A stretch of 5,028 nt of DNA from a virus. Taxonomy: Duplodnaviria > Heunggongvirae > Uroviricota > Caudoviricetes. The notes beneath the pieces were generated by a model. That model did no database searches. It was not told the DNA's origin and saw only the letters and a list, made by a program, of their open reading frames with translations. Positions within the stretch are counted from its first letter, which is position 1, and the number at the start of each line of letters is the position of its first letter. The position numbers and the translations under genes are program-made. Shown one piece after another: positions 1 through 5,028 of this stretch. Location: IMG/VR virus record IMGVR_UViG_2606217110_000024; one strand, written 5' to 3'.

Positions 1-227
1 AAGTCGATATACCGGAAACAACGCGCGGCGCTCTTTACTCATTCGTTTACAACGTGGGTGCTGGCAATTTCAGAACATCGACGCTTCTTCGCAAAATAAA
101 CCAGGGCGATATCAAAGGCGCATGTGATCAGTTACGTCGCTGGACATATGCTGGCGGTAAGCAATGGAAAGGTCTCATGACTCGTCGTGAGATTGAGCGT
201 GAAATCTGTTTGTGGGGTCAGCAATGA
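1..227 (+). CDS. R: Endolysin, T4-type lysozyme (phage 21 R / DLP12 RrrD-like), 3' partial; the 5' end lies upstream of the window
   Basis: Frame 3 is open from the window edge to TGA at 225-227 and translates as [74 protein letters not shown], which matches the C-terminus of the lambdoid T4-lysozyme-family endolysin as I recall it. It is not the lambda R transglycosylase. Its stop overlaps the Rz start as ATGA. Confidence 0.85.
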
Positions 228-685
228 ACAGAGTAACCGCGATTATCTCCGCTCTGGTTATCTGCATCATCGTCTGCCTGTCATGGGCTGTTAATCATTA
301 CCGTGATAACGCCATTACCTATAAAGCCCAGCGCGACAAAAATGCCAAAGAACTGAAGCTGGCGAACGCGGCAATTACTGACATGCAGATGCGTCAGCGT
401 GATGTTGCTGCGCTCGATGCAAAATACACGAAGGAGTTAGCTGATGCGAAAGCTGAAAATAATGCTCTGCGTGATGATGTTGCCGCTGGTCGTCGTCGGT
501 TGCACATCAAAGCAGTCTGTCAGTCAGTGCGTGAAGCCACCACCGCCTCCGGCGTGGATAATGCAGCCTCCCCCCGACTGGCAGACACCGCTGAACAGGA
601 TTATTTCACCCTCAGAGAGAGGCTGATCACTATGCAAAAACAACTGGAAGGAACCCAGAAGTATATTAATGAGCAGTGCAGATAG
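224..685 (+). CDS. Rz: Rz i-spanin (inner-membrane spanin subunit), 153 aa
   Basis: ATG at 224 overlaps the endolysin stop (caATGA). The product [41 protein letters not shown]... has an N-terminal transmembrane helix and coiled-coil periplasmic domain and is near-identical to lambda Rz from memory. The track ORF 212..685 starts at an upstream GTG; ATG 224 is the canonical start. Confidence 0.93.
444..626 (+). CDS. Rz1: Rz1 o-spanin (outer-membrane lipoprotein spanin subunit), 60 aa, embedded entirely within Rz in the +1 frame
   Basis: Product [24 protein letters not shown]...[18 protein letters not shown] has a signal peptide with lipobox VVGC and a proline-rich mature region, matching lambda Rz1. 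The embedded-gene architecture is classic. Confidence 0.9.
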
Positions 686-716: not shown

Positions 717-1010
717 TTATTGTGAGCAATACACACGCGCTTCCAGCGGAGTATAAATGCCTAAAGTAATAAAACCGAGCAATCCATTTACGAATGTTTG
801 CTGGGTTTCTGTTTTAACAACATTTTCTGCGCCGCCACAAATTTTGGCTGCATCAACAGTTTTCTCCTGTCCAATTCCCGAAACGAAGAAGTGATGGGTG
901 ATGGTTTCCTTTGGTGTTACTGCTGTCGGTTTGTTTCCAACAGTAAACGTCTGTTGAGCACATCCTGTAATAAGCATTGCCAGAGCGGCAGAAAACAACA
1001 TTTTTTTCAT
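717..1010 (-). CDS. bor: Bor lipoprotein (serum-resistance / lysogenic-conversion outer-membrane lipoprotein), 97 aa
   Basis: Minus-strand ORF; the track product contains MKKMLFSAALAMLITGCAQQTFTV...YTPLEARVYCSQ. I place the start at the internal ATG (plus 1008-1010) giving 97 aa, with signal peptide and lipobox LITGC and an AGGATAA-like RBS just upstream. The track's longer 113-aa form (717..1058) starts at an upstream ATG that is probably not used. Matches lambda Bor from memory. Confidence 0.92.
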   Translation of the reverse strand: MKKMLFSAALAMLITGCAQQTFTVGNKPTAVTPKETITHHFFVSGIGQEKTVDAAKICGGAENVVKTETQQTFVNGLLGFITLGIYTPLEARVYCSQ

Positions 1011-1055: not shown

Positions 1056-1370
1056 CAATTAAACGATAGTTAAATGGATTGATGAAAATTAAAACTATAT
1101 AGGTGGATGCTCAGCCTATTGGAGGAGGGGGGGCACTCAGAATCCTGTGGAATGAAATAAACCGCTCTATCTGTCCATTACCCTTTTAGCTGCGCTGTAT
1201 CGTCGCCGTATTCCCGCATTAACCATGACCGTAGCCCGACGGGGAATTCCTTCTGCGTGAGTGTGCGGGAATAATCAAAAACGATGCACACCGGGTTTTA
1301 CTGTGCTGACAGACGCAGGGTTACCCTCATAGTCGCTTTTCCGGTGCGATGGTGGAAGAAACCGGGATGT

Positions 1371-1565
1371 TCATCCATCATCACTTTGGATTGATGTATA
1401 TGCTCTCTTTTCTGACGTTAGTCTCCGACGGCAGGCTTCAATGACCCAGGCTGAGAAATTCCCAGACCCTTTTTGCTCAAGAGCGATGTTAATTTGTTCA
1501 ATCATTTGGTTAGGAAAGCGGATGTTGCGGGTTGTTGTTCTGCGGGTTCTGTTCTTCGTTGACAT
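1371..1565 (-). CDS. ylcI: YlcI/YnfO-family small protein (DUF3950), 64 aa, predicted ribbon-helix-helix-like DNA-binding fold
   Basis: Product MSTKNRTRRTTTRNIRFPNQMIEQINIALEQKGSGNFSAWVIEACRRRLTSEKRAYTSIQSDDG has a basic N-terminus, then a strand-helix-G-loop-helix pattern typical of RHH proteins. I recall it as the small ORF found next to cos at the right end of lambda and as YlcI in DLP12. Confidence 0.8.
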   Translation of the reverse strand: MSTKNRTRRTTTRNIRFPNQMIEQINIALEQKGSGNFSAWVIEACRRRLTSEKRAYTSIQSDDG

Positions 1566-1764
1566 GAGGTTGCCCCGTATTCAGTGTCGCTGATTTGTAT
1601 TGTCTGAAGTTGTTTTTACGTTAAGTTGATGCAGATCAATTAATACGATACCTGCGTCATAATTGATTATTTGACGTGGTTTGATGGCGTAGATGCACGT
1701 TGTGACATATAGATGATAATTATTATCATTTTGCGGGTCCTTTCCGGCGATCCGACAGGTTACG

Positions 1765-1953: not shown

Positions 1954-2473
1954 ATGGAAGTCAACAAAAAGCAGCTGGCTGACATTTTCGGTGCGAGTAT
2001 CCGTACCATTCAGAACTGGCAGGAACAGGGAATGCCCGTTCTGCGAGGCGGTGGCAAGGGTAATGAGGTGCTTTATGACTCTGCCGCCGTCATAAAATGG
2101 TATGCCGAAAGGGATGCTGAAATTGAGAACGAAAAGCTGCGCCGGGAAGTTGAAGAACTGCGGCAGGCCAGCGAGACAGATCTCCAGCCAGGGACTATTG
2201 AGTACGAACGCCATCGACTTACGCGTGCGCAGGCCGACGCACAGGAGCTGAAAAATGCCAGAGACTCCGCTGAAGTGGTGGAAACCGCATTCTGTACTTT
2301 CGTGCTGTCGCGGATCGCAGGTGAAATTGCCAGTATTCTCGACGGGATCCCCCTGTCGGTGCAGCGGCGTTTTCCGGAACTGGAAAACCGACATGTTGAT
2401 TTCCTGAAACGGGATATCATCAAAGCCATGAACAAAGCAGCCGCGCTGGATGAACTGATACCGGGGTTGCTGA

Positions 2474-2499
<26 letters not shown>
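1954..2499 (+). CDS. Nu1: Terminase small subunit gpNu1, 181 aa
   Basis: Product MEVNKKQLADIFGASIRTIQNWQEQGMPVLRGGGKGNEVLYDSAAVIKWYAERD... has the N-terminal winged-HTH cosB-binding domain and is near-identical to lambda Nu1 from memory. Its 3' end overlaps A by 26 nt, as in lambda. Confidence 0.97.

Positions 2500-5028
<2,529 letters not shown>

Follow-up and report, generated by a model that had tools for sequence, protein, structure and literature searches.

A cos-proximal gene of lambdoid phages belongs to the YlcI/YnfO (DUF3950) family and may encode a small ribbon-helix-helix regulator related to satellite switch proteins

The closest described relatives of the gene considered here are ylcI of prophage DLP12 and ynfO of prophage Qin in E. 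coli K-12, both of the same family (DUF3950) and both in the same place, as the last gene before cos and nohD/nohA. In their predicted working principle these proteins may be compared with small repressors of the ribbon-helix-helix (RHH) type. Dimers of the omega repressor cover arrays of WATCACW heptads, and omega- and CopG-type RHH proteins in general act on arrays of short inverted half-sites. Here we analyse a family member at positions 1371-1565, on the minus strand, of a 5,028-nucleotide stretch of DNA (hereafter the window) from a virus of the class Caudoviricetes (IMG/VR record IMGVR_UViG_2606217110_000024).

It is fairly probable, in our assessment, that this gene specifies a small RHH-type DNA-binding regulator that is made from the prophage and has its target in trans, and that its relatives in phage satellites are switch repressors. 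Membership of the YlcI/YnfO family is certain and was already known; what is new is the link to satellites with operator arrays, the evidence of selection and the negative result for targets in cis. Although no temperate phage has been studied more closely than lambda, its reference annotation omits this conserved and selected gene at the right end of the chromosome, for which no function is known. The RHH placement and the link to the satellite switch turn a domain of unknown function into testable hypotheses, one being repression of the replication operon in satellites, the other a possible cross-talk of helper phage and satellite.

Identity and conservation of the gene

The features on which the following sections depend are these:
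1371-1565, minus strand: YlcI/YnfO (DUF3950) gene, 64 amino acids (aa), stop codon included (open reading frame list; Pfam, NCBIfam and PHROG matches)
1573-1576, minus strand: GGGG, a Shine-Dalgarno-like run 7 nt 5' of the ATG (from the sequence; the site is annotated as a ribosome-binding site in phage 434)
1566-1764: block of 199 bp from the ATG to the cos nick, nearly invariant in six prophages of the E. coli group (alignment)

The open reading frame (ORF) starts with an ATG at 1565-1563, stops at 1373-1371 and is transcribed leftward, pointing away from cos. The position, strand, length and cos-proximal location given in the initial annotation are exact and, since the right end of lambda aligns to the window through base 1764, the ATG lies 199 bp from the cos nick. 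Its assignment as a YlcI-like DUF3950 gene is likewise sound, with scores above the cut-offs for Pfam DUF3950 (PF13132; E=2e-20, 72.8 bits, family cut-off 25) and NCBIfam YlcI_YnfO_N (NF041551; 37.6 bits, cut-off 30) and with a match of the ORF protein to PHROG 949 (function not assigned; E=2e-35). That the family has no assigned function, as had been stated, agrees with Pfam, NCBIfam, PHROG 949 and the literature; a literature search by the lambda coordinates of the ORF returned nothing relevant. In the lambda literature the name 'orf-64' refers to lambdap73 between Q and S, a different ORF, and invites confusion.

The family core, I-R-F-P ... N-F-S-A-W-V-x-E/D-A-C, is present in the window protein. 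Across 121 sequences I15, R16, F17, P18, F37, S38, W40, V41, A44 and C45 are invariant or nearly so, and I25 also belongs to these positions. The same ORF is found in lambda, 434 and DLP12. In lambda it occupies 48109-48303 of NC_001416 (complement; locus L002, 2110-2304, minus strand) and was left unannotated in the reference record; it is annotated in the record of phage 434 (as DUF3950) and by PGAP, which applies the name ylcI to this gene in thousands of E. coli genomes. With the lambda and DLP12 copies the window protein shares about 95% identity, three residues at its C-terminal end being different. Of 5426 complete E. coli genomes, 5035 carry the region, under the annotation ylcI, so that any regulatory role would be widespread. 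Comparison of codons 1-48 with the copy from a Stx phage gives 16 synonymous and 6 non-synonymous differences (pS 0.50, pN 0.054, ratio ~0.07). The 64-codon ORF is a real gene and, judged from these codon differences, its domain is under purifying selection (dN/dS ~0.07).

Between this gene and bor, the next gene on the same strand, lie same-strand ORFs of 28 aa (1298-1384), which overlaps the stop codon of the DUF3950 gene, and of 37 aa (1178-1291), contrary to the initial annotation, by which only ORFs under 20 aa occur there. The 37-aa ORF had no match in a scan against family profiles, and past the stop codon of the DUF3950 gene the window and lambda have different DNA. As the short downstream ORFs lack a family match and the DNA beyond the stop is not common with lambda, there is no conserved partner gene and, for this reason, the gene is not one half of a toxin-antitoxin pair, which upholds the earlier judgement. 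About 30 other contexts, satellite or chromosomal, are alike in having no conserved partner and no adjacent co-directional gene of toxin size with a toxin domain, and PADLOC returned no defence-system match.

The protein might still be a remnant, an RHH antitoxin that lost its toxin gene and now hitch-hikes with cos. Many RHH proteins are antitoxins, a HicB-like family gives the best profile match of family members, the structural matches described below include ParD and AtaR, and the 28-aa ORF overlaps the stop codon as toxin genes often do. The lack of a conserved partner in the window and elsewhere argues against such an origin and strong purifying selection against decay, so that we regard it as very improbable.

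Family members in satellites and their repeat arrays

The DUF3950 family is narrow, with 141 representative clusters among 1.84 billion proteins, and its members share 35-60% identity across Enterobacterales, Pasteurella and Gilliamella. They occur in two settings, and a few copies are isolated in chromosomes. In the first, the lambdoid phages, the gene always stands alone on the strand opposite to that of the late operon, a short way upstream of the packaging genes. In lambda, 434, DLP12 and Qin-type prophages it adjoins cos and diverges from nu1, and in Stx phages it lies 41 bp from an HNH-Terminase_2-TerL module, the HNH start being at that distance.

The second setting, P4-like satellites together with phage-inducible chromosomal islands (PICIs), extends over more than 25 species and holds most of the species diversity of the family; the hosts include Morganella, Dickeya, Yersinia, Gilliamella, Pasteurella, Serratia, Xenorhabdus, Pectobacterium, Klebsiella, Enterobacter, Proteus, Arsenophonus and E. 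coli. One P4-like satellite of E. coli lies near 4.694 Mb in strain PapRG-04-4 (NZ_CP049201). Integrase and AlpA genes, often with one for an AntA/Bro protein, are followed there by the DUF3950 gene on the opposite strand and then by a leftward operon that begins with an Icd-like gene and ends with one for an alpha-type primase or an AAA_25 helicase. The DUF3950 gene is the lone opposite-strand gene, divergent from this Icd-like/primase operon. In five distinct proteins of 123-129 aa (P0193, P0258-P0260 and P0263; loci L086, 4714-5103, and L087, 5717-6100), DUF3950 is joined to the DNA-binding portion at the N-terminus of a Terminase_2 small terminase, and their genes, in small integrative elements, take the satellite switch position and adjoin the integrase. 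For phage P4 itself, no DUF3950 match turned up in the phage searches. As a candidate relative, Rpp of E. coli PICIs was rejected, since it is a winged helix-turn-helix protein and not a DUF3950 member.

Two loci deserve separate mention. In a Yersinia satellite (L104, 9257-12195) a gene for a 112-aa DUF3950 protein directly adjoins a lambda-type portal gene, an arrangement that fits the 'helper-embedded satellite' (bioRxiv 10.1101/2022.07.18.500453). In the 10.7-kb record of Pasteurella phage Pmp7 (OR544138; locus L083), whose gene content is satellite-like and not phage-like, the annotated 224-aa 'transcriptional repressor' (4435-5109, minus strand) is apparently a miscall across the switch region, the DUF3950 ORF lying on the other strand at 4853-5032.

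The extent of the family has to be read with some care, as error-laden copies of lambda control DNA dominated our first homologue search and a first scan of viral contigs gave near-identical loci only. Loci L107-L136, L142-L144, L147 and L155, together with many 3.5-kb contigs in ENA, are identical to the right end of lambda and are assigned to dozens of 'genomes' of unrelated bacteria (Streptomyces, Cohnella, Pedobacter, Pseudomonas and others). Contamination with sequencing-control DNA is the likely source, and the family looks more diverse than it is through copies that contain read errors.

About 210 bp separate the satellite DUF3950 gene from the divergent operon, and this spacer contains three to five copies of a 12-bp palindromic repeat of the GTG..CAC type, for example GTGTTTAAACAC and GTGCACAAACAC; the array sequence is also represented by TGTTTAAACA. 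Half-sites AAACAC/GTGTTT occur in inverted pairs three to five times over ~100 bp, with copies at about -123, -100, -76 and -30 from the DUF3950 ATG. The copy at -30 overlaps the TATAGT -10 element of the DUF3950 gene, and that at -76 abuts GTCAA (TTGAC on the other strand), the -35 element (TTGACG) of the opposing operon. A repeat matrix built from the first seven satellite loci was applied to 22 further satellite-type loci, in which it found 0-5 matches (typically 3-4) in the 260 bp upstream of the gene, at the same positions, and 0-5 in the remaining 8 kb; the arrays are concentrated in those 260 bp. As the satellite loci are related to each other, the features they share are not independent observations. 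The anatomy of the arrays suggests an auto-regulated repressor of the divergent operon, a part that the DUF3950 protein would play, and in this indirect way the repeats beside satellite homologues support DNA binding by the family.

Proteins reading K-G-I-R-F in the segment proposed below to contact DNA pair with ..TTTAAAC.. repeat centres, those reading K-N-I-R-F with ..GTGCGCAC.., ..GTATAC.. or similar centres. The leader of the Icd-like/primase operon carries, on the opposite strand at about -190 to -150 from the DUF3950 ATG, a conserved GC-rich hairpin followed by a T-run (L088, 5810-5850; also L091, L104, L105, L086, L087, L083 and L187), and the loop of this hairpin holds a further GTGTT..GCAC repeat-like 12-mer. 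An Rfam scan of the satellite loci detected no C4/IsrK immunity RNA at gathering score, only int-alpA RNA and tRNA.

Predicted fold and the proposed regulator

The segments of the window protein, with their coding positions, are as follows:
1533-1565, minus strand: residues 1-11, basic N-terminal tail MSTKNRTRRTT (no regular structure in either AlphaFold model)
1512-1532, minus strand: residues 12-18, TRNIRFP, proposed DNA-reading beta-strand (alignments and hhalign; extended and non-helical in the models)
1470-1511, minus strand: residues 19-32, helix A (helical in both AlphaFold models)
1458-1469, minus strand: residues 33-36, GSGN, turn ahead of helix B (loop in model 2, followed by invariant F37, S38 and W40)
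1383-1457, minus strand: residues 37-61, helix B, with the conserved part 37-49 FSAWVIEACRRRL (helix 37-61 in model 2)

The initial annotation had read an RHH layout from the sequence and proposed a structure prediction for the 64-aa protein. AlphaFold monomer models were built from 18 and 121 aligned sequences (pLDDT 66.8 and 73.5, single chains only). Both leave residues 1-18 unstructured or extended and place a helix at 19-32, a turn at G33-N36 and a second helix from residue 37, so that the helices, the GSG turn and the extended course of residues 12-18 in that layout are predicted, and the strand itself is the part that did not form. Helix B loses confidence after residue 50 (model 2), and the tail past about residue 50 differs among the lambda, Qin and Stx copies. 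Such a layout is the appearance expected, at the level of a model, for an RHH chain without its partner, and the conserved residues would fit a strand of alternating core and DNA-facing side chains with two packing helices.

Comparisons across the family point in the same direction. With hhalign, NIRFP falls in register with NLRWP of Arc and NFRMP of Mnt (motif N-x-R-x-P). In a PHROG scan of 17 divergent members, six match a HicB-like family in its RHH domain (best E=8.3e-5) and matches to Arc-like repressors were found at E=6.8e-4, 0.022 and 0.032; the independent profile matches of family members are to RHH families only. Foldseek searches against PDB returned mostly RHH proteins for model 1 (NikR, Arc, ParD, ArtA, PrpA, the ParB of pCXC100 and TCP domains) and exclusively RHH-type proteins for model 2 (NikR, TCP, AtaR2). 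An RHH fold of the ORF protein, as judged from models and alignments, is probable, short of demonstrated; the obligate intertwined homodimer with an antiparallel beta-ribbon is for this protein a predicted feature only.

According to the reading that we favour, dimerisation would run through residues 12-18, whose paired strands would make up a ribbon for reading the major groove of DNA, with the invariant R16 as part of it. In satellites the protein would be an auto-regulated repressor of the replication operon, similar to Mnt or the omega repressor. The phage copy would be made from the prophage and not from the late operon, and would bind a DNA target away from its own gene, probably on the host chromosome or on a co-resident element.

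Several results weigh against this reading. Residues 12-18 form no beta-strand in the monomer models, in which the chain was modelled without a dimer partner, and every Foldseek match has E>1. The hhalign comparison with Arc, Mnt and the Arc/Mnt profile is not significant (P ~0.02), the set of Arc homologues having been too narrow to help; the RHH profile matches of the window protein itself are weak (E=0.02 and 0.21), and sequence searches of PDB with two family profiles gave no RHH match. A Pfam scan of 18 members at E up to 10 likewise gave no RHH family, only DUF3950 and, in the fusions, Terminase_2. On the minus strand of the window, no sigma-70-like promoter was found between 1000 and 1960, by scan or by eye, and no terminator for the DUF3950 gene was found. 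The link between strand residue and repeat centre is anecdotal and uncorrected for relatedness, and another protein of the switch region could bind the satellite repeats. We found no paper that assigns a function to YlcI, YnfO or DUF3950; the gene is known here from sequence and family, and the protein itself is predicted.

The protein might instead not be of the RHH type, but a helix-loop-helix or coiled-coil adaptor working through protein contacts, with the satellite repeats bound by another factor. The modelled second helix is long, reaching residue 61, and for the window protein none of the RHH comparisons reaches statistical significance. However, the long part of helix B coincides with the poorly conserved, low-confidence tail, the profile matches of family members and the Foldseek matches of both models are to RHH proteins, and Pro18 splits the basic segment from helix A, unlike the basic helix of bHLH proteins. 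We hold such an adaptor to be rather unlikely.

The cos neighbourhood, candidate targets and known systems

The window is the late-region/cos junction of a lambda-like prophage, and its remaining features are these:
3-227, plus strand: endolysin gene, 3' end
224-685, plus strand: Rz
444-626, plus strand: Rz1
717-1010, minus strand: bor/iss lipoprotein gene, next same-strand gene downstream of the ORF (Pfam Lambda_Bor, E=6.4e-31; iss in E. coli genome annotations)
1735-1741, plus strand: cosQ, GGGTCCT (sequence; position matches the annotated cosQ of phage 434)
1765-1776, plus strand: cosN 12-nt cohesive end, GGGCGGCGACCT (alignment with the lambda right end stops at 1764)
1817-1929: cosB, with R3 at 1817-1829, R2 at 1872-1884 and R1 at 1918-1929 (repeat families)
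1954-2499, plus strand: nu1, small terminase, divergent neighbour of the ORF across cos (Pfam Phage_Nu1, E=3.9e-101)
2474-4399, plus strand: A
4396-4602, plus strand: W

The sequence from 1765 onward is what we take, from established knowledge of lambda, to be the lambda left end, and the names R3, R2 and R1 are presumed on the same basis; the cosB repeats were recovered in lambda too, at 53, 111 and 155. The order from Rz to cos is that of phage 434 and, minus the p78/p79 (ybcV/ybcW) genes, that of lambda and of DLP12 in K-12. The DUF3950 ORF is the sole opposite-strand gene from the lysis/bor region to the packaging genes. Portal gene B (in the region 4599-5028) is cut after ~57 codons, near 4770, and beyond it lies the C-terminal end of IstB from an IS21-family element (4814-5026, minus strand; Pfam IstB_IS21, E=1.2e-20), which makes this a defective prophage. 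A long hairpin is predicted in the sense of the late transcript (1195-1290, plus strand; arms 1209-1218 and 1264-1273; minimum free energy -33.6 kcal/mol, z=-3.2), with 1 of 200 shuffles equally stable; this block is kept in Stx2a phage WGPS8 and not in lambda. An Rfam scan of the window gave no meaningful match.

The 199-bp block stays nearly invariant even where cosB and nu1 have been replaced, from which it follows that gene, leader and cosQ move as one module. The promoter of the DUF3950 gene lies probably inside this block. The initial annotation had held that the promoter would have to overlap cosQ/cosN, a necessity not borne out in the absence of a minus-strand sigma-70-like site between 1000 and 1960; given the near-invariance of the sequence between cosN and the ATG, such an overlap is plausible. 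The symmetric elements of the block are one inverted repeat (1635-1647/1655-1667) and one palindrome adjoining cosQ (1712-1729), with no others locally. The best sigma-70-like match in the bor-nu1 interval is at 1702-1729 on the plus strand (GTGACA-16-TATCAT, 10/12); it points rightward through cosQ/cosN toward nu1 and overlaps the palindrome.

Targets of the kind seen in satellites were sought beside the phage copy, with negative results throughout. The best score of the satellite-type operator matrix between 1000 and 1960 of the window was 6.2, a value reached by 75% of shuffles. GTG-N6-CAC occurs once in the window, inside gene A and at chance level, and 11 times in all of lambda, without clusters, where 12.3 are expected. 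Six other phage-type loci have no satellite-type arrays upstream, and an unbiased repeat search of lambda recovered cosB and the ori iterons and nothing near 48.1-48.5 kb. The context that characterises satellite copies is absent from the window, where the neighbours are bor and cos/nu1 and there is neither a divergent operon nor an array. The copies of lambda, Qin and Stx phages have identical DNA-reading segments, and the flanks of lambda-type and Stx-type copies are unrelated. With no array in the window or in lambda, this combination suggests that the target is not adjacent to the gene and lies in trans.

The same observations bear on whether the protein is instead a local regulator in cis, repressing its own promoter together with bor/iss or with rightward read-through into nu1-A in the lysogen. 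Such a role is usual for small RHH repressors and may hold for the satellite homologues, and it would suit the near-invariant block with its inverted repeat (1635-1667) and palindrome (1712-1729) as well as the best nearby promoter-like site, which faces cos and nu1. It is weakened by the lack of conservation of the flanks: identical DNA-reading segments stand before unrelated upstream DNA in lambda-type and Stx-type copies, the HNH gene being only 41 bp away in the latter, the DNA between the gene and bor differs between window and lambda, and no repeated motif like the satellite arrays is present. We consider local control doubtful.

A packaging accessory that binds near cos and helps terminase to recognise it or to terminate there would account for the constant place of the gene beside the packaging site. 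The phage gene lies 0.2-0.7 kb from packaging genes with two unrelated types of small terminase, Nu1 (lambda, 434, DLP12) and HNH plus Terminase_2 (Stx); the five satellite fusions carry the DNA-binding part of Terminase_2; and gene, upstream block and cosQ travel together despite the exchange of cosB and nu1. However, the gene is antisense to the late operon from which all packaging genes are expressed, and its place in satellites is the replication switch, well away from terminase and capsid genes, with the fusions also encoded there, beside the integrase and outside any packaging module. The interval from gene to cosN holds no repeat beyond the one inverted repeat and the one palindrome. 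Small cosQ-cosN-cosB fragments suffice for the packaging of cosmids, and no such factor is known to be required for packaging in vitro. This function appears quite unlikely.

In at least half of the K-12 RNA-seq samples, the transcripts of ybcW and ylcI are listed as a convergent pair that overlaps (PMC12288877). Transcription of this copy in a cryptic prophage, together with the orientation against the late operon, suggests expression from the prophage, as for bor. One specific form of action in trans is that the phage copy mimics the satellite switch repressor as a helper counter-measure against satellite parasitism. The protein, made by the prophage or from the DNA end that enters the cell first, would occupy the operators arrayed in resident P4-like/PICI satellites and keep their Icd-like/primase operon off or otherwise tune it. 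The homology of phage and satellite proteins with their common strand arginine, the occurrence of both kinds of element in E. coli and the lack of a target in cis are consistent with this proposal, which we nevertheless think unlikely.

Among the known systems, YlcI and YnfO differ from the window protein in nothing of substance, and no function is known for them either. With respect to DLP12 and lambda, the window lacks ybcV/ybcW (lambda p78/p79) between bor and ylcI, as does phage 434. The lambda moron bor, like the window gene, is directed against the late operon in the mosaic region between Rz and cos, and bor and lom are expressed in the lysogen (PMC7067206). In contrast to these morons, the window protein is predicted to be of a cytoplasmic DNA-binding type and not a surface protein, and neither a promoter nor a terminator was found for the window gene on the minus strand.

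The switch region of P4-like/PICI satellites (AlpA/Vis, Icd-like protein, epsilon 'derepression protein', alpha-type primase) is the home of most family members, which lie on the opposite strand between the AlpA/Bro zone and the replication operon; the window gene, by contrast, stands by cos in a helper-type lambdoid phage, without divergent operon or operators. Arc and Mnt of phage P22 (immI; Pfam PF03869) are of similar size and share the in-register N-x-R-x-P at the junction of strand and helix A, followed by a helix-turn-helix B arrangement. Mnt is a lone repressor in a phage late region, divergent from the operon it controls, and the satellite homologues with their Icd-like operon resemble it; similarity of sequence or profile to Arc/Mnt is not significant, and neither an ant gene nor an operator lies beside the window gene. 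The omega repressor (pSM19035), CopG and ParG bind arrays of short repeats such as those which the satellite homologues adjoin, a likeness that is predicted and confined to the working principle; no array accompanies the phage copy. By analogy, the window protein, its RHH membership being unproven, would work most like the Arc/Mnt or omega-type repressors.

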